A DNA stretch of 25,114 nucleotides from an uncultured Verrucomicrobiales bacterium (GCA_966251085.1 CBINJX010000001.1:1-25114), one strand, 5' to 3'. Counted from the first letter of the stretch, positions 4,820 to 16,445 are shown. Numbers and translations: made by a program. Notes: generated by a model from the letters alone, not told the origin.

Positions 4820-5134
4820 GTGCCAGAGAATACCTCGATACCCTTGGCTGCCGCTCGTGCGCTTCGCAAACTGGGCCGAGATCTTGCGCTTGCCCGACGA
4901 AAACGGGGTATTTCTACTGAGGATATGGCCTCGCGTCTCTTTGTCAGCCGAGCCACCCTTTGGCGCATGGAACGCGGAGACCCGACGGTAGCTGTCGGGA
5001 CGCTTGCGACCGCCGCTTTCATCCTTCAGTTGCATGAGCGCCTTGCAGATCTGGCTGCCCCGGCGACAGATGCTCTAGCTCTCAGCCTCGATGAACGCCG
5101 CTTACCAAAACGCATCCGCCGCTCGCGACCATGA
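4820..5134 (+). CDS. XRE-family HTH protein, HipB-like antitoxin
   Basis: LGRDLALARRKRGISTEDMASRLFVSRATLWRMERGDPTV is a Cro/C1 HTH. GTG start. The stop overlaps the hipA-like start (ATGA at 5131-5134). Confidence 0.85.
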   Translation: MPENTSIPLAAARALRKLGRDLALARRKRGISTEDMASRLFVSRATLWRMERGDPTVAVGTLATAAFILQLHERLADLAAPATDALALSLDERRLPKRIRRSRP

Positions 5135-5675
5135 CCGTCGAGGTTCACATCGATTGGGCCGGAGAAACTCATCTCGTCGGCCGAATCTACACCGCTCAAC
5201 ATAGCCCAGCGGTTTCGTTTGAGTATGCGCCTGAGTGGCTCCTCCGAACGGACGCCTTTGCAATTGATCCCACATCCCTTCCACTGCGCCCCGGCCCTCA
5301 CCATAGCCCGACGCTTTTCGGTGCGATGCAGGACTGTGGTCCCGACCGTTGGGGACGGATGCTGATTGGGCGGGCAGTTCGCAAGCAAGTGATCGATCGA
5401 AGGCCATACCAGGATTTGGACTACGTCTTGGCCTTGGATGATTCCTCCCGCATCGGTGCGCTTCGTTTTCGTTCGGATGCGAACGGGCCATTTCTCGCTA
5501 CCAGCGACGGAAAGATCCGCCAGTCGTTCAACTCACCGCTCTGCTCAATGCAGCAGACGCCGTTCATGGCGAGACTGAAAGTGCCAAAGACCTCCGGTAT
5601 CTCCTCGGGCAAGGCTCACCACTCGGTGGAGCCCGACCAAAGTCCGCAATCGCCCTTCCCGATGGGAGACTCGGC
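5131..5675 (+). pseudogene. hipA: HipA-family kinase toxin, frameshifted and truncated
   Basis: The N-terminal part has VGRIY, SFEYAPEWL, D.GPDRWGR and DDSSRIGALRFR. After K-I (5512-5517) one base is missing. The homologous text resumes in another frame at 5520 (PVVQLTALLNAADAVHGETESAKDLRYLLGQGSPLGGARPKSAIALPDGRL), including the HipA P-loop LGGARPK. Homology stops near 5675 and the catalytic C-terminal half is absent. Confidence 0.85.
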
Positions 5676-5989
5676 AAGCAGCTTCGCATTAAGGCCTCCA
5701 CGCTTGATGCCTACTCCACGGCTTTCGATCACCCTCTTATTGGAGGAAACCGAACATCTCCTGTAGCTGAAGGTGACCGTGCCGCTGCCCCGGCGGGATC
5801 AAACGCGATCCGGGAGCCGGCAACTCCTTTTTCAAAGATGGGAAGAGCCGCGTGTCGAAGTCTCCATTCGGGAAGTCCATCCTAGCGGCAGGTACCGACA
5901 TCGAGCCCGAGTGGGCCAACAACCGGAGGAGAGTTGGACCATGCTTGGAAAAATACGAGTAGATTTAGATGTACTTAATCAACGGAGCA

Positions 5990-6024
5990 AAATCCAAACA
6001 CGTTCTTGGGCAGTGATTGGATTT
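5990..6024. promoter_or_regulatory. Inverted repeat upstream of abiEi, probable autoregulatory operator
   Basis: AAATCCAAACAC (5990-6001) / GTGATTGGATTT (6013-6024), 11 of 12 matches with an 11-bp spacer, 30 nt before ATG 6054. AbiEi proteins are known to repress their own promoter through inverted repeats. Confidence 0.55.
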
Positions 6025-6053
6025 CTGCGAGAAGATCAAGCGTGGGCTTACCT

Positions 6054-6785
6054 ATGCCGCGAAACCTACTCAAAACAGTCCACACCGAAATTCCGCGCGG
6101 GGCGCCCTTTGCCATCCAGACGCTGTATTCTCTGGGGGTTTCATCAGTATTGGCGTCCCAGTACGTGAAGGCAGGTTGGCTGGAGCGCCTCTCACGAGGA
6201 ACGTTCATGTTTCCGAATGATCGGCTTGAGCGAGATGACTGCCTTCGGTTCCTCGCTACGCGGATCCCCGGATTACACGCGGGAGGGAAAACAGCCCTCG
6301 CATGCCGTGGAGTGCGTCACAATATCTCCCCACGGGAGCGCATAATTCTGTGGGGAACAGACCGCGCAGTGCTGCCTGAATGGTTCAAAAAACGGTTCCC
6401 ATCACGCTATTTGGCCAAGAGCCTTTTCTCCTCGTATCTGCCTGCCGGGTTTGGACTCCAGCCATTACCTGAGTCGCCGGACGGGCCGCTTGTCTCTGTG
6501 CCGGAGCGAGCCCTTTTAGAAATGCTGGAAGAGGTTGGCGTGAAACAAGGCGTTGAAGAGGCCCACAACATCATGGAAGGCGTGCGCTCAGTGCGCGGCG
6601 AAGTATTGGAGACACTGTTGAAAAATTGCCTCAGGATAAAAGTCGTCCTTTTGTGTGTGCAATGGGCTGAGGAACTGCGTTTGGAGTGGCATTCTCTGGC
6701 GAGGAGAGCGGTAAAGGACAAACTCGGGCAGCGCCGCTGGGTTTCTCGACTCAAGGATGGCTCCACATTAATTCTGAATCCCTGA
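6054..6785 (+). CDS. abiEi: Type IV toxin-antitoxin antitoxin, AbiEi family
   Basis: PRGAPF...L..LGVS..LASQYVKAGWLERLSRG.F, LHAGGKTALA.RG..HNI and PLVSVPERALLEML.EVG match AbiEi_3-type antitoxins. Start ATG 6054. Confidence 0.85.
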   Translation: MPRNLLKTVHTEIPRGAPFAIQTLYSLGVSSVLASQYVKAGWLERLSRGTFMFPNDRLERDDCLRFLATRIPGLHAGGKTALACRGVRHNISPRERIILWGTDRAVLPEWFKKRFPSRYLAKSLFSSYLPAGFGLQPLPESPDGPLVSVPERALLEMLEEVGVKQGVEEAHNIMEGVRSVRGEVLETLLKNCLRIKVVLLCVQWAEELRLEWHSLARRAVKDKLGQRRWVSRLKDGSTLILNP

Positions 6786-7096: not shown

Positions 7097-7135
7097 CCCC
7101 TTGACCTTGGACCTTAGTCCAATGTGTAGGGTGCC
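7097..7135 (+). promoter_or_regulatory. MerR-family promoter/operator 1
   Basis: -35 TTGACC (7101-7106), 20-bp spacer, -10-like TAGGGT (7127-7132). The dyad CCTTGGA-N6-TCCAATG overlaps the spacer. An elongated spacer containing a dyad is the MerR-family hallmark. Confidence 0.8.
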
Positions 7136-7138
7136 AGC

Positions 7139-7495
7139 ATGAAAACTTCGTTATCGAAGATATACCTGTTCACAGGGTTAGCGGGCCTAGTGATTGGAGC
7201 TTCCCTCTACTTTAGCAGTAGCGCACAACGCTCTTCGACTGACAGGCCAACTGCAAGTTCCGCGACGGAATCAGTCGTAATCCCAGTGAAAGGGATGTCC
7301 TGCATGGCTTGCGCTGCGAAGACAAAGCAGGCGCTGCGGTCTACTTCGGGAGTGGCTGAGGTTGAGGTGAATCTCGATCCCGGCAGCGTGGCTGTGAAAT
7401 ACGACGGATCATTGGTCACGCCTCAGAGATTGGCAGACGTGATCAATAGGATCGGCTATCAGGCCGGAGTGCCTGCACTGGGCTCCGCACAATGA
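7139..7495 (+). CDS. Heavy-metal-associated (HMA) domain protein with N-terminal signal/anchor (MerP/CopZ-like)
   Basis: N-terminal hydrophobic segment (YLFTGLAGLVIGASLYF), then VKGMSCMACA..T..AL...GV..V.V.L...V.YD...TP..L...I...GY, a GMxCxxC HMA fold. Confidence 0.85.
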   Translation: MKTSLSKIYLFTGLAGLVIGASLYFSSSAQRSSTDRPTASSATESVVIPVKGMSCMACAAKTKQALRSTSGVAEVEVNLDPGSVAVKYDGSLVTPQRLADVINRIGYQAGVPALGSAQ

Positions 7496-8181
7496 TGCGG
7501 CTCGAACAGTTCCTTGAGCAAACTGCCGCCGGGCTACCCCATGGATCGGTGTGGATGCTCGCGATCGCGGTGATTGGCGGTGTGCTGGCCAGTGCGGTCT
7601 GTCCATGCACACTGCCGGTTGGACTCGGCGTTGCGGGCATGGCCGCGGCTTCAGAGGGGCAATCGCGCCGGGCGGGTCTGGGCATCGCCCTGAGTTTCTT
7701 CGCGGGTATTGTCGTCAATCTGACAATTCTCGGTGCGCTTGCAGGCCGGCTCGGCGCGGTGCTTAGCGAATCTTTCGGCCGGTTCTGGACCGCTGCGATG
7801 GCGCTTCTTGCGATTACCGCAGCAGTGATCGCATTTCTCGGGCCGCGGCTGAAAGCTGATCAACTTGCGGCTTTGCGGCGACCTGGAGTGGTTGGCGCAT
7901 TCAGTTACGGCTTCGTGTTCAGCCTCGGGACCTCCGTCGCACCTCTACTGGTGCTGATGACCTTTGCCGCAGCTCAGGCAAGTCCGCTTTACGGCACTAT
8001 GCTGGCGCTCGCCTTCGGCATCGGACGAGGATTGCCTTTTCTGCTGGTCGGGGTTTTCGCGGGCACACTGATGCGCTTTGTTCATTTGGGCGCATGGCGC
8101 CGCACCGTGCAGATCGCGAGCGGGTGCATCCTGCTGCTGCTGAGTCTCTATTTCCTGAGAGCACTGGCTGCCTTCATCTGA
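7492..8181 (+). CDS. CcdA/DsbD-beta-fold membrane protein with a CPC motif
   Basis: About six TM segments, ASAVCPCTLP (CcdA-like SPCxLP) and F.IGRGLPFLL. The start overlaps the upstream stop (ATGA). The second conserved PC motif is replaced by GTSVAP. Confidence 0.75.
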   Translation: MMRLEQFLEQTAAGLPHGSVWMLAIAVIGGVLASAVCPCTLPVGLGVAGMAAASEGQSRRAGLGIALSFFAGIVVNLTILGALAGRLGAVLSESFGRFWTAAMALLAITAAVIAFLGPRLKADQLAALRRPGVVGAFSYGFVFSLGTSVAPLLVLMTFAAAQASPLYGTMLALAFGIGRGLPFLLVGVFAGTLMRFVHLGAWRRTVQIASGCILLLLSLYFLRALAAFI

Positions 8182-8191
8182 TTTGCATCCG

Positions 8192-8230
8192 CCCCTTGAC
8201 CTTGGAGTTAAGTCCAAGGCGTAGCGTGCC
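8192..8230 (+). promoter_or_regulatory. MerR-family promoter/operator 2
   Basis: -35 TTGACC (8196-8201), 20-bp spacer, TAGCGT (8222-8227), perfect dyad CCTTGGA-GTTAAG-TCCAAGG. Identical to promoter 1 at 33 of 39 positions. Confidence 0.8.
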
Positions 8231-8259
8231 TACAACGAAACACCGAAAGTATCACGACG

Positions 8260-10653
8260 ATGGCTACTGAAACCGTTCAAATGAAAGTCTCCGGGCTGAT
8301 GTGCTCGTTCTGCACGATGAGTGTGGAGAAGGCACTCAAGCGTCACCAAGGGGTCAAAAGCGTCATGGTCAATCTCGTTCACGGCATCGTGCTCGTGGAA
8401 GCAGACACCAAGCAGATCAGCCGTGACGAGCTGGCGGGTGCGGTCGAGAGCCTGGGGTATGATGTCTCGGCAACCGAGGCGCAGCAATACACCACAGACG
8501 AAGGTCTCTTTAAGCTGATCAAAACCCGCGGACGCATCGGCATGGCACTCGCGATCCTCGATCTCGCAGTAGATCCGCTCAACCTTTTCGCACTGCCAGC
8601 GCAGGTGCGCGGCTGGTTCAGCTTTGCCGTTGCCGCGTTCATCCTTTTCTGGGTCGGCTATCCGATCCTGCGCAAGACGCTCATGGCGCTACGGAACCGC
8701 GTCATCAATGCCAACGTGCTGCTGTCCGCCGGCGCGTGGGGTTCCTTCATCGTCGGGACTTTATCGCTCTTTGACCCACGGTGGCCGAATTTCCTGCCTG
8801 TCGCGGGCTGGCTGATGGCGCTGCATCTCTTCTTTGGGTTTTTCAAACTCGATACCCGGAAGAAGGCGTCTGAAGCCGTTCGTAAGTTGCTCGCACTTCA
8901 ACCTTCACGAGCACGCGTATTACGAGGGGATGAGCCAGTCGAAGTTCTCACGAGCGATGTTGTCAAAGGCGAAGTCGTCATCGTGCGACCTGGCGAACGC
9001 ATCCCGCTCGATGGTGAGGTGATCGATGGTGCCGCAAGCGTTGACGAGTCGAGCTTCACTGGCGAATCGGTGCCGGACACAAAGTCCACCGGCTCTAACG
9101 TAATCGGTGGCACGCTCAACCTAGATGGCGAACTCAAAGTGCGCGTGACCAAAGTCGGGGAAGAGAGTTTCCTGACTCAAATCGTCAGGCTGATGACCCG
9201 GATCGCCGAGCGAAAACCACCGGTGGAGCTACTGGCAGACCGACTAATGAACTTCTATGGACCGGTCGTTTTCATCGTCGCCGCGATCGCCTTCGCCGGC
9301 TGGCTGATTTTCACCGGTAACGCGCTCGCCGCTACGCTCGTGTTACTGACCACAATCATTATGGGTTACCCGTGCGCACTTGGCATCACTACGCCGATGT
9401 TGGCAGCGATTGCAGGAGGCAAGGGCATTGCCATCGGTCTCCTCGTCAAAGCGAGCGAAGTTTTCCATGAGCTTTCGACGGTCGACACCGTGGTCCTCGA
9501 TAAGACTGGCACGCTCACCTATGGACGTCCGACTGTCACTGATGTGGAACCCTTCGGTGTTTCTCGTGCTGAGCTACTTGCCATTGCAGGGGCAGTCGAA
9601 GGCCCCTCCGAGCACCCGCTCGGGCAAGCCATTGGATTCTTTGCACAGCGTGAAGGCGCCCCGAAGAAAGCGGCTACGAACTTCCGGGCGGTGCCCGGCA
9701 AGGGCGTTTCCGCGGTGCTGAATGACGTTGAAGTGATCGCCGGCAAGCCTTCGTTCATCGAAGAGCGCGGGATCCGGTTTTCAGAGGAAGTGAGCGCAAG
9801 AATCGAGGCACTCGGTGCGCAGGGGAAAACAGTCGTTATCGTTGCGCGGAACGGTCAGCCTATCGGTGCTCTCGCGCTCCAGGACACGCCACGCCGCGGC
9901 GCCGACGGATTGATGGAGAAGCTGCGCGGTCACAACATCAAGACCGTAATGCTCACAGGGGATGCCCGCCGTGTAGCCGAAGCCATTGGCTCCCAACTCG
10001 GCGTCGATGAAGTCCGCGCCGAACTGCTGCCCGACCAGAAGGTGCGCGCGATCGAGGATCTGCAGCACGCAGGGCGCAAAGTCGCCATGGTTGGTGACGG
10101 GATCAACGATGCCCCTGCCCTTGCGCAATCCAACGTCGGAATTGCCATTGGCGCAGGCACCGATGTTGCGATCGAATCCGCAGGTGTCATCCTCGTCGGC
10201 GACCGCATTGACGATGTGTTCAGCGCGATCCTCTTGGGCCGCGCCAGCTACCGCACAATGACCGGCAACGTCATCGTTGCTGTGCTCTTCAACATCGCCG
10301 GAATGATCCTTGCCGCTATTGGATTCATCACTCCCGTGCTCGCCATCGGGTTTATGGTGCTGAGCATCTTCGCCATTCTGCTCAACACGCTACGCATCCG
10401 CTCCATCAACTTGCAGCGCGAAGAACTGACGGAGGGAAGTCCCCTCGCGGAGGCCGATTTTTTTGTCCCGAACATGGTTTGCGAGGGCTGCGCTGAGAAG
10501 ATCACCTCGGTGCTCAACTCCGTGCCGGGCGTCCGGCAGGTCACACCGAAAGTTCCGCAGAAGCACATCTACGTGCGATACGAGCCCGCGAAAGTACAGG
10601 AACAGCAACTGCAAGCCGCGATGAACAAGGCTGGCTTTACTGCCGTGGCCTAA
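8260..10653 (+). CDS. Heavy-metal-translocating P1B-type ATPase with a YPC motif and N- and C-terminal HMA domains
   Basis: 797 aa. N-terminal GLMCSFC, A-domain TGES, membrane motif YPCALG, DKTGT phosphorylation site, SEHPL, MLTGD, GDGINDAP and C-terminal NMVCEGC HMA. Confidence 0.92.
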   Translation: MATETVQMKVSGLMCSFCTMSVEKALKRHQGVKSVMVNLVHGIVLVEADTKQISRDELAGAVESLGYDVSATEAQQYTTDEGLFKLIKTRGRIGMALAILDLAVDPLNLFALPAQVRGWFSFAVAAFILFWVGYPILRKTLMALRNRVINANVLLSAGAWGSFIVGTLSLFDPRWPNFLPVAGWLMALHLFFGFFKLDTRKKASEAVRKLLALQPSRARVLRGDEPVEVLTSDVVKGEVVIVRPGERIPLDGEVIDGAASVDESSFTGESVPDTKSTGSNVIGGTLNLDGELKVRVTKVGEESFLTQIVRLMTRIAERKPPVELLADRLMNFYGPVVFIVAAIAFAGWLIFTGNALAATLVLLTTIIMGYPCALGITTPMLAAIAGGKGIAIGLLVKASEVFHELSTVDTVVLDKTGTLTYGRPTVTDVEPFGVSRAELLAIAGAVEGPSEHPLGQAIGFFAQREGAPKKAATNFRAVPGKGVSAVLNDVEVIAGKPSFIEERGIRFSEEVSARIEALGAQGKTVVIVARNGQPIGALALQDTPRRGADGLMEKLRGHNIKTVMLTGDARRVAEAIGSQLGVDEVRAELLPDQKVRAIEDLQHAGRKVAMVGDGINDAPALAQSNVGIAIGAGTDVAIESAGVILVGDRIDDVFSAILLGRASYRTMTGNVIVAVLFNIAGMILAAIGFITPVLAIGFMVLSIFAILLNTLRIRSINLQREELTEGSPLAEADFFVPNMVCEGCAEKITSVLNSVPGVRQVTPKVPQKHIYVRYEPAKVQEQQLQAAMNKAGFTAVA

Positions 10654-10730
10654 CTTCTACAGCCGCACTATGATCTGCGATTCCGGAAAGACTTGTGCGG
10701 TCATGCGCCGTAATACGCTACTCCACTAAA

Positions 10731-11195
10731 ATGAGCGCAGATTCAGACCAACAGCTCCTTATTGGTCACCTCGCCAAGCTCGCTGGGGTCAAAACCGATA
10801 CGATTCGATTCTACGAACGAAGCGGGCTGCTGCCAAAGCCAGAGCGCAAGGTGAGTGGTTACCGTGTTTATGACGAGTCTGCGGTGAAGCGCGTCCGCTT
10901 CATCAAAAAGGCGCAGGCACTCGGGTTCTCCCTCGACGAGATCCGCCGCATCCTGAGCCTTAGCGGGCAGGGTGCGGAGACGTGCCGGTGTGTTATCTCG
11001 ATGGCTGAAGCCACACTCGCAGAAACCGAGGCAAAGCTTAAGGAGATGCAGAGGTTTGCTGACGCTCTGAGCGAAAATTTGGCTCGCTGGCGCAAAATGT
11101 CGGGCAGAGGTAGACGCGTAGCCGATGAATTCTGCCGACTTATTGAGTCAGGTTCAGATCAGACGACTCCTTCCGAACCAGGCCGCTCCTCGTGA
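10731..11195 (+). CDS. MerR-family heavy-metal-responsive transcriptional regulator
   Basis: IGHLAKLAGVKTDTIRFYERSGLLPKPER..SGYR.Y...V.R..FI..AQ.LGFSL.EI is a MerR HTH. Cys residues at 85, 87 and 135. Start ATG 10731. Confidence 0.92.
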   Translation: MSADSDQQLLIGHLAKLAGVKTDTIRFYERSGLLPKPERKVSGYRVYDESAVKRVRFIKKAQALGFSLDEIRRILSLSGQGAETCRCVISMAEATLAETEAKLKEMQRFADALSENLARWRKMSGRGRRVADEFCRLIESGSDQTTPSEPGRSS

Positions 11196-11497: not shown

Positions 11498-11938
11498 TCA
11501 GGACGAACGCAACGCCTGCCGGTATCCCGCCGCGTAGGCATCGAAGACGCGCCTGATCTCATCGCGCACTCGGCGAAAGACGGCAAGTTGCTCTTCCTCG
11601 CTGCCAGTAGCATGTGCGGGGTCATCAAAACCCCAGTGGTAGCGGTTCACCTGACCGGGGAACATGGGGCATGCCTGATCAGCATTGCCGCAGACAGTAA
11701 CCACCGTATTTACCTGCTCATCGAGAAACTCGCTGAGGTGCTTGGAGCGGTGCCCCGAGATGTCGATCCCGATCTCCTGCATCACCTTGATCGCAAGCGG
11801 ATGGACGTAACCCGCCGGTTTCGAGCCGGCACTCGCCACATCAAGGATATCACCGGCCGCGGCCCGCAAGATACCTTCGGCGAGATGGGATCGGCACGAA
11901 TTGCCGGTGCAGAGAATGAGAATCAATGGTTTCGTCAT
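11498..11938 (-). CDS. arsC: Arsenate reductase, thioredoxin-coupled LMW-PTP family
   Basis: P-loop CTGNSCRS, distal redox pair [10 protein letters not shown] and DDP motif, in an ars gene context. Confidence 0.9.
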
Positions 11939-11950
11939 GGCCTCGGCGAG

Positions 11951-12412
11951 TCAGCAGCAGCCTCCACCAGGGCAGCAGCTATCCCCGTTGTTCCCAGTAG
12001 CGGGAATGCAGACGTCCTTAGCCAAGCAGTCTGTCTTTTTCTCCGTGAGCTGGAAGGAAAGCACCCCGTTTGCAGCTTGTGCCGAGACAATCGGAAACTG
12101 GGAGAGATTGCAGTCCTCGTACTCCACTTCGACATCGAGATCATCCCCGTTGAGGAGAGGCTCCGCTTTGGTCAGGATCGATGCCAGAGTCCCGGGAAGC
12201 AGACGGTGATCGGTATCATCCGCCACCCATGCCTGGAGCGTGCATGCAGCCACATGCCGGATCGTTCCTCCGCAGTCGATGAATCGTCTGTCAGTGCGGC
12301 CGACCTCAGTGATGTGAGCGTGCGCCTCGATCCTACCGCCGTCCTCTAGGACAAAGCAGAGTTCGTGTTCTGGATGTTGCTCAAGGTTTCGTTTGAATTC
12401 GGATAATTTCAT
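11951..12412 (-). CDS. DUF6428-like protein with Cys-rich C-terminus (ars-associated, function unknown)
   Basis: MKLSEF...L.F....G..I.AH.HITEVG......DCGG..R......Q.W...D..HRL....L..I......L...DL.VEVEY is the pattern I recognise as DUF6428. The tail is CLAKDVC...SCCPGGGCC. Start ATG 12412. Confidence 0.75.
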   Translation of the reverse strand: MKLSEFKRNLEQHPEHELCFVLEDGGRIEAHAHITEVGRTDRRFIDCGGTIRHVAACTLQAWVADDTDHRLLPGTLASILTKAEPLLNGDDLDVEVEYEDCNLSQFPIVSAQAANGVLSFQLTEKKTDCLAKDVCIPATGNNGDSCCPGGGCC

Positions 12413-12523
12413 GTAGTTCGGAGTGAAGAGATGCATGGAGACGAGGGAGAAATTGGAGCGCCATCTGGCGACGGACGCTGTTTGGAAGAAGTTAAAAACC
12501 CGTCTTCTGAATTGCAGAGCCGG

Positions 12524-12958
12524 CTACCGGTTCGGCTTTACTGCCTTGCGATGCGTTGCCGAGGACTTCACCGGCCGTTCGGGGCAGCAGGATGTCGCTT
12601 GCTCGGCGCCAGCGGAAAGATCCGCAAGCCACCCCACCTTTGGCACAAGAGCCTGCAATCGGAGCAGGTCCGCCTTAAAAATGGGATGCGTTTGCACACA
12701 GTCCTGCAGGCACTTGAGATTTGCTTCCAGTTCTGCTGCGGGTTGCTGCGGCAGCGAGTAGATCATCCAGTTCTGGTGACGCTGGGCGTGAACGATGCCC
12801 TTCTCCTTCATGTAGGCGAGATGCTTCGAGATCTTCACCTGAGGTTCATCCAGTAATTCCTGAAGATGACACACGCAAAGAGGCCCGCGCCGCAGCAGGT
12901 TAATGATGCGGAGGCGGGTTTCGTCGCAGAAGCACTGATAAATTTGGATCAGGTCCAC
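12524..12958 (-). CDS. arsR: ArsR/SmtB-family repressor
   Basis: DETRLRIINLL..GPLCVCHL...L...Q..ISKHLAY.K..G.V...R...W..YSL, with the alpha3 LCVC metal motif. The start is probably GTG 12958 (MDLIQIYQC). Confidence 0.9.
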   Translation of the reverse strand: MDLIQIYQCFCDETRLRIINLLRRGPLCVCHLQELLDEPQVKISKHLAYMKEKGIVHAQRHQNWMIYSLPQQPAAELEANLKCLQDCVQTHPIFKADLLRLQALVPKVGWLADLSAGAEQATSCCPERPVKSSATHRKAVKPNR

Positions 12959-12964
12959 GGCTTG

Positions 12965-12993
12965 ACTATGCACTCGCGGGTATATACCGTCAA
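12965..12993 (-). promoter_or_regulatory. Candidate sigma70 promoter of arsR
   Basis: Minus strand: TTGACG (12993-12988), 17 bp, CATAGT (12970-12965), then 6 nt to GTG 12958. The palindrome GGTATATACC overlaps the spacer. Confidence 0.5.
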
Positions 12994-13071
12994 CAGCATA
13001 TAGATCGACCATCCTTCAATGGTCCCGCATTTACCAACCTTGGGATCCAATACGATGAAGACTAGCCCTCA

Positions 13072-13350
13072 ATGCCTGAGGCTCTGCACTTCGACCCAAC
13101 CCGCCCGTGCTGTGCAACACTGGCCGCGGTCGATCTTTTCCCCGATCTGCTGAACCTCAAAACGAACCAGATTAACCGTGGCCGTGTTGCCTCTGTAATT
13201 GTGGAATCCTCCGGTCTGGGGGTGCGGCATAGCGAAGTAGTCGTGGACGAACAAGCGTGGGACGCGTGCGTAAAGGCTCCGCACTTCCGTGCCTGTTACG
13301 ATCTGAGCATGGCCAAACTCGCACTCCAGGGGGCTCTCGGGCCGAGGTAG
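13072..13350 (+). CDS. Small hypothetical protein with CC and two further Cys, first gene of the acr3 operon
   Basis: 92 aa: [27 protein letters not shown]...[44 protein letters not shown] start, host-like codon choice, divergent from arsR, ending 32 nt before acr3. No family recognised. Confidence 0.6.
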
Positions 13351-13382
13351 TTCGCTCTCCTTCTTTTTCACTTACTCCGTTT

Positions 13383-14480
13383 ATGAACGCACCCGCCACA
13401 AACGCATCTGTCGCGCGAAGGATGTCCTTCCTGGACCGTTATCTCACGGTCTGGATCTTCGCCGCGATGGCAATCGGTATCGCCATCGGCCACTTCATCA
13501 TCACCGATCCTGAGGCCTTCTTCGCTCCAATGACCATCGGCACCACCAATCTTCCGATCGCGATTGGTCTCATCCTCATGATGTATCCGCCGCTTGCGAA
13601 GGTGAAGTATTCACAGATCCACAAGGTTTTCTCCAATACGCGGATCCTGGGCCTCTCCTTGCTGCAGAACTGGATTATCGGACCGGTGCTCATGTTCCTG
13701 CTGGCGGTGACACTCCTGAGGGATCATCCCGACTACACGGTCGGCCTTATTCTCGTGGGGATTGCCCGCTGTATTGCGATGGTGCTCGTGTGGAATGACC
13801 TGGCAGATGGCAGTCGTGAGTATGCCGCCGGACTCGTGGCGCTTAACAGCATCGCGCAGATTCTCTTTTACAGCGCCTTCGCGTGGCTCTTTATCACGGT
13901 GCTCCCGCCTTACTTCGGTCTAGAGGGCAAGCTCGTGGAGGTCTCGATGACCGACATTTTCTGGAGCGTGATGATCTATCTCGGAATCCCGTTTGCCGCG
14001 GGCCTGCTCAGCCGGGTGATTCTCGTGCCGTTGAAAGGCGAGGCATGGTACGAGCAGAAGTTCATCCCCCGGGTCTCGCCAATCACGCTCGTTGCGTTGC
14101 TTTTCACCATTATCGCGATGTTCACCTTCAAGGGACACGCCATCGTCGAACTGCCGCTGGATGTAGTGCGGATCGCCATCCCGCTCGTGATCTACTTCGT
14201 GTTCATGTTCCTGGTGAGCTTCTTCATGGCCAAGCGATTGGGGGCGGATTACCCGCGCTCCACGTCGCTCGCCTTCACCTCGGCCGGGAACAACTTTGAA
14301 TTGGCCATCGCTGTGGCAATCGCCGTCTTCGGCATAAAATCAGGCGCAGCTTTCGCCGCAGTCGTCGGACCGCTCATTGAAGTGCCGGCCCTGATCGGTC
14401 TTGTCCACGTCGCCCTGCGATTCCGCCGCGGCTTTACCCAGTCCAGTGTCGGAAACGAGAAATTGACGCCCGTTTCATGA
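13383..14480 (+). CDS. acr3: Acr3-family arsenite efflux transporter
   Basis: [52 protein letters not shown] and [27 protein letters not shown]. Start ATG 13383. Confidence 0.95.
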
Positions 14481-15042
14481 ACGTGCCAACGGACATGCTG
14501 ACCGAAGAGCTGCGCACCCGCCTGTTCGCCTTCATTTTTTCGCGGGTGCGCAGTCATGAAGTCGCTGAGGATCTGACGCAGGAAACGCTCGTGCGCGCGG
14601 CACGCAGCCTCGGAGAAACGGACATTGAAAACGTCGAGGGTTGGCTCTTCCGTGTGGCTCGGAATGCTGTCACCGATCATTTTCGCGACAGCAAAGCTCA
14701 GGTCGAGTGGCAGGAACACGAGCACGGTGAAGCAACCCACGAGGACGCGCTGACGAAGGAGGAAGCGGCGTTGCGCAACAACTCGCGCTTTATTTGCGGG
14801 GAGTAGTGGACGGGCTACCCGAGCCATACCGCGAGGCACTGCTGCTTACGGAGTATCAAGGCCTCACCCAGAAGGAACTTGCTGAGAGGCTCGACATCAC
14901 CCTTTCCTGCGCAAAATCCCGCGTGCAGCGGGCTCGTGCCGAGGTAAGGCGCACGATCGATCACTGCTGTCGTGTAGCCACAGATGCTTACGGGCAGATC
15001 ACCGACATGGAACCACGCCATCGGCCAGCTTGCGATTGCTGA
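14477..15042 (+). pseudogene. sigZ: SigZ-like ECF sigma factor split by a 1-nt frameshift (pseudogene or sequencing error)
   Basis: The region-2 half (L.AFI.SRV...VAEDLTQET......WLFRVARNAV.DHFR) runs from 14477. The region-4 half (LPEPYREALLLTEYQGLTQKELAERL.I.LS.AKSRVQRAR....TIDHCC) lies in another frame. Adding one base at about 14777 joins them as ALR-x-QLALYLRGVVDGLPE. The C-terminus is HCC...ACDC. Confidence 0.8.
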
Positions 15043-15101
15043 AGAAATCCTGCCTCCTTTTCTGCGGTGCCACGTCTTTGCAGATGAAACCAAAACTTCA
15101 C

Positions 15102-15905
15102 ATGCAAACGACTAATCCTATCCAAGAAGACCGGGTCCGTCAGCAGGTTCGCGAGCGTTACGGGGACATTGCCCGGACTGGAACCATTGGCTGCTGCGCT
15201 CCCTCCTGTTGCGCGCCCGCAATCAGCCCCACCGTACCTGAAACACTCGGCTACCAACCCGATGATGTCGCTTCCGTTCCTGAGGGAGCAGAGATGGGAC
15301 TTGGCTGTGATAATCCGACAGCCATCGCTTCCATTCTGCCTGGAGAAACCATCGTCGATCTGGGAAGCGGCGGCGGGTTTGACTGCTTCCTCGCTGCTCG
15401 GCAGACCGGACCTACAGGAACCGTGATCGGTGTCGACATGACACCGGACATGATCAGCAAGGCCCGCGCAAATGCCGCGAAATCGGAGTCTCGGAACGTC
15501 GAGTTTCGCCTTGGCGAAATCGAGAATCTGCCGGTGGCGGACAATACCGCTGACCTCGTGATCTCAAACTGCGTGGTGAATCTTTCGCCGAACAAACCGC
15601 GTGTCTTCAATGAGGTCTTCCGGGTGCTGAAACCTGACGGACGCGTCGCCATCTCGGACATTGTGGCAACAGCTCCGCTCCCTGAGGACCTCAGGAATGA
15701 CTTCATTGCCTACACCGGCTGCGTTGCAGGTGCGTCCACTGTGGCAGACCTGAAGATGTGGCTTACTGAACAGGGCTTCGTTGAAATCGCAGTCACGATT
15801 AACGAAGAGAGCCGGAAGTTCATCGACGGATGGGCGCCGGGGAAGAACGCGGGCCGCTATGTGGCATCGGCGACAATTGAAGCGCGCAAGCCGGCAATTC
15901 CATGA
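15102..15905 (+). CDS. arsM: Arsenite S-adenosylmethionine methyltransferase
   Basis: VRERYG.IA...CC..CC, GLGC.NP, SAM motif VDLGSGGGFDC, GVDMT.DM, ISNCVVNLSP and GCVAGA. Alternative start ATG 15084. Confidence 0.92.
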   Translation: MQTTNPIQEDRVRQQVRERYGDIARTGTIGCCAPSCCAPAISPTVPETLGYQPDDVASVPEGAEMGLGCDNPTAIASILPGETIVDLGSGGGFDCFLAARQTGPTGTVIGVDMTPDMISKARANAAKSESRNVEFRLGEIENLPVADNTADLVISNCVVNLSPNKPRVFNEVFRVLKPDGRVAISDIVATAPLPEDLRNDFIAYTGCVAGASTVADLKMWLTEQGFVEIAVTINEESRKFIDGWAPGKNAGRYVASATIEARKPAIP

Positions 15906-15980
15906 TTCCGTCGATGCTGGCCTGAGCAGTCACTGAAACTCAGCAACCTCCAAAGCGATAAAGCCCAATCACGCGTCTCC

Positions 15981-16445
15981 ATGAAAAAGAAGGTACTTTT
16001 CATCTGTGTCCACAACTCCGCCCGCAGTCAGATGGCCGAGGCATGGCTCAACCACCTTTGTGGTGATGTCTTTGAAGCGGAGAGCGCAGGGCTTGAACCC
16101 GGCACTTTGAACCCTCTCGTGGTCGAGGCAATGGCGCAGGTGGGTATCGATATTTCAGGGAAGGCGACTCGCAGCGTCTTTGACGCTTATCGCTCTGGAA
16201 CCTTCTACAGCTTCATCGTCAGGGTTTGTGATCGGGCAGCCGAAGAGGGTTGCCCGATCTTCCCGGGTGTGAACCAGCCGCTGGACTGGAGTTTCCCTGA
16301 TCCGGCAGAGGCCACAGGCACTTACGAGGAGCGGTTGGAGCAGGTGTGTGCAATCCGTGATGCTATCCGCGGACGGATCGCGGAATGGTGTGAGGAGATG
16401 TGCGGACTGGAATCGGTCGGCGGTTCCGAAGCCCTTTCTGTTTAA
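15981..16445 (+). CDS. arsC: Second LMW-PTP-family arsenate reductase
   Basis: CVHNSARSQMAE P-loop, VCDRAAEEGCPIFPG redox pair, WSFPDP. Confidence 0.88.
   Translation: MKKKVLFICVHNSARSQMAEAWLNHLCGDVFEAESAGLEPGTLNPLVVEAMAQVGIDISGKATRSVFDAYRSGTFYSFIVRVCDRAAEEGCPIFPGVNQPLDWSFPDPAEATGTYEERLEQVCAIRDAIRGRIAEWCEEMCGLESVGGSEALSV

Follow-up and report, generated by a model that had tools for sequence, protein, structure and literature searches.

A putatively MerR-regulated gene unit with a YPC-type P1B ATPase and a CcdA-fold partner, a candidate metal-resistance module

Ligand residues in the membrane define the subgroups of P1B ATPases. Here we describe a four-gene unit, at positions 7,097 to 11,195 of a 25,114-nucleotide stretch of DNA (hereafter the window) from the metagenome-assembled genome (MAG) of an uncultured Verrucomicrobiales bacterium (GCA_966251085.1 CBINJX010000001.1:1-25114), whose ATPase belongs to a deep and widespread clade with an invariant YPC site that, classified by its sequence, fits none of the described P1B subgroups. 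The unit also encodes an HMA protein, a membrane protein of the DsbD_TM/CcdA family and a MerR-family regulator. In our judgement the unit is probably a self-contained, horizontally mobile metal-resistance module with a MerR-switched YPC pump and an HMA/CcdA pair, and mercury is put forward, tentatively, as the likeliest metal.

The gene unit and its YPC-type ATPase

All four open reading frames are present and co-oriented on the plus strand, and Pfam and NCBIfam confirm their families. The HMA protein gene (7139-7495; 118 aa; PF00403, E=5e-13) is followed by the DsbD_TM/CcdA-like gene (7492-8181; 229 aa; PF02683, E=6e-13), whose ATG overlaps the stop codon of the HMA gene, by the P1B ATPase gene (8260-10653; 797 aa) and by the MerR-family regulator gene (10731-11195), which encodes 154 aa from its ATG or 166 aa from an alternative GTG start at 10695. 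Two MerR-type promoter/operators, also on the plus strand, precede the HMA and ATPase genes. P1 (7101-7132) and P2 (8196-8227) both have the -35 hexamer TTGACC and a 20-bp spacer; the dyads are TTGGAC-CTTA-GTCCAA and CCTTGGA-GTTAAG-TCCAAGG, and the -10 hexamers TAGGGT and TAGCGT, respectively. Their common core is TTGACCTTGGA(C/G)-N4-GTCCAA, followed by TAGGGT or TAGCGT after the 20-bp spacer, a pattern with two matches in the window against 0.00 expected (100 shuffles). Each thus has the layout by which MerR-type promoters are recognized, hexamers 19-20 bp apart with a dyad operator between them, and from this architecture we predict that both are activated. P1 would probably drive the HMA and CcdA-like genes and P2 the ATPase gene and, with less assurance, merR.

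The ATPase scores 523.5 bits on the P1B heavy-metal ATPase model TIGR01525 (cut-off 346.25), has intact catalytic motifs (TGES 267, DKTGT 414, SEHP 450 and GDGIND 612) and carries HMA domains at both ends, with CSFC in the N-terminal domain and CEGC in the C-terminal one. Its transmembrane helix (TM) 4 contains G-Y370-P-C372-ALG, TM5 contains N670x6-F678-N679 and TM6 contains P692x6-M699xxS702-I703. In the Argüello classification a P1B-1 Cu(I) pump is defined by CPC in TM4, YN in TM5 and MxxSS in TM6; the window pump has YPC, FN and MxxSI instead, as do all homologs read. The P1B-2 motif set for Zn, Cd and Pb (CPC, a TM5 Lys and DxG in TM6) is likewise absent, and scores on the ZntA models are far under the cut-offs. 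The pump passes the copper subfamily model TIGR01511 (417.7 bits vs 397) and falls well below the CopA equivalog NF007952 (423 vs 1316 bits). To our knowledge, which here includes reviews, no YPC subgroup has been described among the P1B classes, and we found no description of the YPC pump/CcdA-fold family in the literature. The original prediction of four co-oriented genes under two matching MerR promoters, with YPC, FN and MxxSI in the pump and a CPC lacking its partner cysteine in the CcdA-fold protein, was borne out in every detail checked.

The unusual residues are a property of the family. The 120 ATPase matches listed are 71-99% identical to the window pump and come from Verrucomicrobia, Acidobacteria, Armatimonadetes, Planctomycetes, Myxococcota and Gammaproteobacteria; all of them (120/120) have YPC and a C-terminal CxxC, and 117/120 have the N-terminal CxxC. 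In a maximum-likelihood tree whose outgroup consists of two further pumps of the MAG, one Zn-type and the other SPC, all 22 YPC rows form a single clade (support 100/96). Two YPC clades, mutually 33-40% identical, lie beside genes for CcdA-like proteins with CPC. Clade A is the type of the window's pump (71-82% identical, with MxxSI and a C-terminal HMA domain); clade B is 33-40% identical to it and has MAASVT in TM6 and FNx4P in TM5.

The same MAG encodes six further P1B pumps over the family cut-off, seven heavy-metal pumps in all (contigs C25, C816, C67, C843, C836 and C689 of assembly G000; loci L111-L116). Three of the six are of the CPC/YN/MxxSS type, two are Zn-type and one is SPC/HEGST, so that the window pump, judged by these motifs, is not the organism's ordinary copper or zinc pump.

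Comparison with characterized systems sets the family apart in similar terms. With the Cu(I)/Ag(I) P1B-1 ATPases (CopA of A. fulgidus and L. pneumophila, ATP7A/B) the YPC pumps share their architecture, catalytic motifs, N-terminal HMA domain and a scaffold of Nx6-(Y/F)N in TM5 and Px6MxxS in TM6. However, they have YPC rather than CPC, FN rather than YN and SI or SV rather than SS, carry a second HMA domain at the C terminus and almost always have a CcdA-fold partner, and the regulators of their units are three-Cys MerR types rather than CueR. The ZntR/ZntA, CadR/CadA and PbrR/PbrA systems resemble the window unit in controlling a P1B pump through a MerR sensor with a cysteine at the helix start and a promoter with a 20-bp spacer, but neither the TM5 Lys nor the TM6 DxG of Zn-type pumps is present in the window pump, which stands apart from the Zn-type pump of the MAG in the tree.

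The HMA protein and its CcdA-fold partner

The CcdA-like protein belongs to the CcdA/DsbD_TM family (49 bits on PF02683 against 27.1) and carries C37-P-C39 in TM1, with GTSVAP at the position of the canonical TM4 cysteine. The arrangement of an electron carrier, one redox cysteine in TM1 and one in TM4, is therefore not found in it. In the 120 homologs among the matches listed, CPC is present in all and a TM4 cysteine in none. Among representatives at 50% identity, (S/N)PC in TM1 together with a cysteine in TM4 marks the canonical relatives; the lineage of the window protein has CPC, or CPF in sister clades, and no TM4 cysteine. An AlphaFold2 model built from a diverse alignment (predicted local distance difference test score 82.5) breaks TM1 exactly at the CPC (37-39) and TM4 at 146-148, and its sole clear match in the PDB is the nuclear magnetic resonance structure of CcdA, 5VKV (probability 1.00, TM-score 0.53-0.54). 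Like the carriers CcdA, DsbD-beta and ScsB, then, the window protein has the Pfam DsbD_TM domain, a six-helix fold and breaks in TM1 and TM4; unlike them, it has a CPC in TM1 in place of the TM1/TM4 cysteine pair, its sister forms have a single cysteine (CPF), and there is no constant thioredoxin partner.

The CPF forms retain the non-canonical cysteine alone and still adjoin YPC pumps of both clades (loci L011 and L118). Because these one-Cys forms still pair with YPC pumps, a dithiol/disulfide shuttle cannot be the conserved function of the family. An intramembrane metal-binding or relay role would fit the CcdA-fold protein better than electron carriage, as far as its residues allow a judgement.

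The HMA protein has an N-terminal hydrophobic anchor and the motif GMSCMAC, with CMAC at residue 55. It contains a generic HMA domain and scores 37.6 bits on the MerP equivalog TIGR02052, against a cut-off of 92.55. In 74 distinct loci the gene before that for the CcdA-like protein encodes an HMA protein with an N-terminal anchor or lipobox, and in most of them stop and start codons overlap.

Profile scanning of metagenome contigs turned up 415 stretches that encode a CcdA-like protein with CPC, of which 80 were retrieved; wherever a downstream pump had a readable TM4, the motif was YPC (44/44). The usual gene order is MerR-HMA-CcdA-ATPase, with merR last in the window and in L019 and L028; L019, from Verrucomicrobia bacterium 61-8, is the closest relative of the window. 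A neighbourhood search had been proposed as the means of finding out whether the unit is conserved elsewhere, and it recurs across many phyla, with dual MerR promoters recurring in relatives.

The partnership is close without being rigid. CcdA-like proteins are on average 65% identical (up to 87%) across clade A and clade B loci and 67% identical within a clade, whereas the pumps are on average 38% identical across clades. Three metagenome loci and one Clostridia MAG (L058, L084, L089 and L002) have a MerR-HMA-CcdA or HMA-CcdA cassette with no pump nearby, and a few pumps lack the cassette (L025) or have another DsbD_TM protein, with CPFC in TM4 (L017). By these comparisons the HMA-CcdA cassette is modular, pairing with two deep pump clades and sometimes standing alone, which fits its having a promoter of its own in the window. 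Strict co-evolution of all four parts is ruled out by the same identities. Random decay or private mutation is ruled out in turn by the constancy of YPC, of CPC and of the MerR cysteines across the homologs listed. The earlier reading of the odd residues as something other than decay was thus correct, and its idea of deviations that had co-evolved held for the constancy of the residues and failed for a strict coupling of the parts, the cassette being about equally alike within and across pump clades and occurring free of a pump.

In L017 (9675-10376) the DsbD_TM partner has no TM1 cysteine, and two small thioredoxin-like genes flank the unit; the L017 pump is the nearest to the window's in the tree (79% identical). 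Two further genes recur next to pumps of the family and are absent from the window: a small Fer2_4 (2Fe-2S-like) protein directly 3' of clade A pumps (L023:8401-8769, L032, L075, L083, L104 and L119:5789-6169), and an MFS transporter, 56-63% identical between loci, on the 3' side in L025, L032, L037, L039, L061, L083, L090, L097 and L125.

Across reference genomes the unit has a patchy distribution, and it is located in resistance islands. We found no close copies of the CcdA-like gene beyond known ones in 60 relatives or in 400 genomes of the same phylum, none except the known carrier in 300 genomes from the phylum to which the Polyangiaceae MAG L001 belongs, and only two loci in a scan of genome contigs with the CcdA-like protein as single query. 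Homologs at 70-85% identity are nevertheless known from many phyla, and cultured Bacteroidota carry them on plasmids; this combination of patchiness and high identity across phyla and plasmids indicates horizontal spread.

MerR sensors and operators

The window MerR has only three cysteines, C85, C87 and C135 (TCRCV...EFCRLIES). Its nearest solved structure is the mercury sensor MerR of Tn501 (5CRL; 8.5e-22), CueR being far weaker; in the comparison Cys85 falls on Cys82, an alanine stands at the Cys117 equivalent, and a further cysteine lies two residues past the first. The statement that this MerR lacks the middle cysteine is thereby confirmed. The three cysteines are invariant or nearly so in the 120 homologs listed, in the motifs TC(R/Q)CV and (E/D)FCxLIE. 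The protein reaches 112.1 bits on the Hg(II)-sensor model TIGR02051 (cut-off 150.85) and 85.5 bits on the CueR model TIGR02044 (cut-off 147.4), and scores below the cut-offs of the ZntR and CadR/PbrR models as well; it has a cysteine instead of CueR's serine at the helix start and only one loop cysteine. In a variant found in L019 and L029 the third cysteine has moved into the loop, which suggests a three-thiolate site as the conserved trait.

Many relatives carry a near-canonical MerR, with a helix-start cysteine followed by C-x8-CP in the loop, that scores 138-150 bits on TIGR02051, and one of these is ~51% identical to an E. coli plasmid MerR. The MerRs of neighbouring merTPA operons score lower (98-104 bits). 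Operators of the units with near-canonical MerRs read TTGACTCCGTAC-N4-GTACGG, and their -35 hexamer and half-sites are those of the E. coli merT promoter TTGACTCCGTACATAACTACGG, as read from the plasmid record. The window-type MerR (CxC plus one loop cysteine) goes with a distinct operator, of which relatives invariably contain two or three per unit.

The regulator, part of the co-evolved system of the original prediction, is not a fixed partner of the pump: relatives' units use at least four other MerR cysteine patterns and, in Bacteroidota, CsoR-like repressors. In eight loci (L087, L091, L093, L098, L099, L102, L104 and L107), mostly with clade B pumps, a MerR gene lies ~800 bp upstream of the CcdA-like gene; these MerRs have no helix-start cysteine, carry C-A-C-x6-8-CPILEAL in the loop and are predicted to have a metal site unlike that of the window sensor. 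CsoR-family repressors upstream of YPC pumps (L125:6139-6531, L126:6570-6935 and L011:4670-4972) lack the canonical C-H-C copper fingerprint, the two from Bacteroidota having a CPGDC motif and that of L011 two cysteines and no histidine.

Surroundings, candidate metals and mode of action

The unit lies in an island, with broken toxin-antitoxin genes on one side and an ars cluster on the other. Directly upstream (5131-6785) lie a HipA N-terminal fragment and an AbiEi antitoxin gene, consistent with the boundary of a mobile island. The arsenic cluster (11498-16445) directly follows merR and comprises, on the minus strand, genes for a low-molecular-weight protein tyrosine phosphatase-type ArsC, a DUF6428 protein and ArsR and, on the plus strand, genes for ACR3, an ArsM-like methyltransferase and a second ArsC. 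On plasmids of Hymenobacter and Adhaeribacter, YPC units are likewise followed by ArsR/DUF6428/ACR3 clusters. An island of YPC and ars genes recently shared between phyla is ruled out, the ars genes being only 41-66% identical. Genes for GDCCVxC-domain (seleno)proteins lie near the YPC units on both Bacteroidota plasmids (L126:6208-6414 and L125:16197-16394), in A. swui directly between merTP and the CsoR-like repressor.

We propose that the three-Cys MerR, with two cysteines at the start of the dimerization helix and one in the C-terminal loop, would bind both near-identical operators within the over-long promoters and, when metal is present, turn on both P1 and P2. P2 would then supply the P1B ATPase, a member of a distinct and old subfamily sister to the Cu(I) pumps. 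Its predicted ion site retains one cysteine, the asparagine, the methionine and the serine, having lost one cysteine (CPC to YPC) and the TM5 tyrosine (YN to FN), and the HMA domains at its two ends are placed in the cytoplasm. Most likely the pump exports a soft, thiol-loving cation out of the cytoplasm. P1 would supply the translationally coupled pair of the exported HMA protein and the CcdA-fold protein, with its CPC at a mid-membrane helix break, and we infer that, at the outer face of the membrane, this pair accepts or relays the metal let go by the pump rather than carrying electrons.

It is plausible that the unit may have a metal specificity of its own. As had been foreseen, the metal cannot be read from the sequence, and the neighbours point several ways. 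Hg(II) is our tentative first choice, at somewhat less than an even bet. In 6/10 assembly contexts and ~5/26 non-redundant metagenome loci, counts for which there is no matched control, merA, merT or merF lies within 6-9 kb of the unit, and mer genes are directly contiguous with units in several loci (L020, L027, L029 and L097). On a plasmid of Ca. Manganitrophus (L117, CP114554.1) a MerR that PGAP names an Hg(II) regulator, divergent from merA, directly heads the YPC pump; a frameshift near 9114 interrupts that pump (7483-9872), which the annotation does not show as a single gene. On the Adhaeribacter swui plasmid, MerTP lies just upstream of the unit. Mercury is favored as well by the near-canonical MerRs and merT-like operators of many relatives, by the match of the window sensor to 5CRL, by the ordinary copper and zinc pumps present elsewhere in the MAG and by the failed copper rescue described below.

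The window unit also resembles the mercury-handling arm of Tn21 and Tn501 (MerR/merO, MerP and MerT, MerC or MerF) in its MerR activator on a long-spacer promoter, its exported HMA protein and its small membrane protein with a TM1 cysteine pair, and its relatives have near-canonical MerRs and merT-promoter half-sites and adjoin merA or merT. It differs in having a CcdA-fold membrane protein without homology to MerT and an ATP-driven pump at its core; its MerR is without a Cys117 equivalent and has its own operator, and neither merA nor merT was found. A survey of mer genes does not mention an ATPase, CcdA or efflux (PMC8261052).

Several observations weigh against a mercury pump with a metal-relaying partner. 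The neighbour-gene counts around YPC units come without a matched set from ordinary CopA loci, and Cus-like RND (4/26 loci), Csp and CsoR-like repressor genes also adjoin the unit, with Cus-like RND, Csp and ars neighbours about as frequent as mer genes; ars genes adjoin it in the window and on two Bacteroidota plasmids. In the MAG, which is 88% complete, the best match to the MerA model stays at 330 bits, under the cut-off of 454, and MerT has no match; none of merA, merT, merC or merF lies within the window, which thus contains no mer operon. The earlier remark that there is no merA therefore holds for the window and the MAG and not for relatives, which often adjoin merA, merT or merF. Where loci nearest the window subtype do have a mer operon (L019 and L030), it comes with a separate MerR and with an operator of another type, CCTTATA...TATAAGG. 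The window MerR itself is about equidistant from two sensor models (112 bits on the Hg-MerR model and 105 on ZntR). The TM5/TM6 scaffold of the pump is Cu-type, the YPC clade is sister to the CPC/CPH copper-type pumps in the tree, and among solved structures the pump is most similar to those of Cu(I) pumps, namely A. fulgidus CopA (2e-125), ATP7B and LpCopA. Small thioredoxin-like genes adjoin units L029, L017, L118 and L125, where the CcdA-fold protein may still have a reductant role. Finally, an outward Hg pump next to a passive thiol carrier could cycle futilely.

The copper-type features of the pump could instead mean that the unit exports Cu(I), Ag(I) or Au(I) as a variant of CopA/CueR, in which the altered ligands tune affinity or rate and the cassette is a periplasmic Cu(I) acceptor. 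Besides its solved relatives, its place in the tree and its score on TIGR01511, this explanation draws on the Csp, Cus-like RND, cupredoxin and CsoR-like genes adjoining several loci. However, three canonical Cu(I) pumps are already encoded elsewhere in the MAG. Of the sensor's three invariant cysteines one stands where sensors of +1 ions have serine, and the sensor matches CueR far worse than MerR, PbrR or CadR. Many units, moreover, have Hg-type MerRs and operators and are located in mer clusters. A synthetic metagenomic pump, CopAL6, which is placed in the family by its published description only (a YPC motif and an HMA domain at either end), did not rescue an E. coli delta-copA strain: copper accumulation rose and copper resistance fell (PMC11082258). 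Counting for copper, if correct, is an unverified statement in PMC4541151 that S. solfataricus has YPC in its copper-resistance CopA; these two are the only mentions of such a motif that we found in the literature. On balance we regard copper, silver or gold as a somewhat unlikely substrate. Other thiophilic ions (Cd, Pb, Zn, As or Sb) are unlikely, and some further substrate is less likely still.

For the CcdA-fold protein one alternative is that it is still a transmembrane conduit for reductant, like CcdA or ScsB, keeping the CxxC of the exported HMA protein reduced and thus able to capture metal that leaves the pump. The CcdA fold itself is secure, and small thioredoxin- or glutaredoxin-like genes lie beside the cassette or the pump in L029, L017, L118 and L125, with one fused to merR in L020. 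In its favor, too, the CPC of Mia40 is an example of a CxC motif with redox activity. Yet the canonical TM4 cysteine is gone from every homolog listed, the CPF sister clades keep their YPC pumps with one membrane cysteine, and most units have no thioredoxin gene, and we consider this explanation improbable.

Most doubtful of all is that the pair is an inward uptake arm like MerP and MerT and the ATPase a separate function sharing only the regulator: the layout does mimic MerP and MerT in its periplasmic HMA protein and TM1 intramembrane cysteine pair, the cassette has its own promoter, occurs free of a pump in four loci and swaps between pump clades, and a MerF-like gene replaces the HMA gene in L011, but induced uptake would be harmful in a MAG where neither merA nor merT was found, and in nearly all loci with enough sequence the YPC pump follows the cassette, which argues for joint function.

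If the pump and the pair do act together on mercury, a more specific arrangement can be imagined, which we offer as speculation. The pump and the CcdA-fold protein would form one two-subunit transporter in which the pump has dispensed with a cysteine of its CPC site and the partner's conserved C37, the sole cysteine retained in the CPF forms, receives or co-binds the ion. The ion would leave the pump by thiol exchange and be passed to the exported HMA protein, making the module a dedicated ATP-driven Hg(II) efflux system, a mode of resistance outside the mer paradigm based on reduction.

Should the metal be mercury, efflux would join a resistance paradigm that rests on uptake and reduction, and the mercury-resistance potential of metagenomes would be read differently. 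Should the CcdA-fold partner be a metal carrier, a redox fold would have been re-used for metal transfer. The presence of the module on plasmids of the cultured and non-pathogenic Bacteroidota Adhaeribacter swui KCTC 52873 and Hymenobacter sp. DG01 makes these possibilities directly testable.

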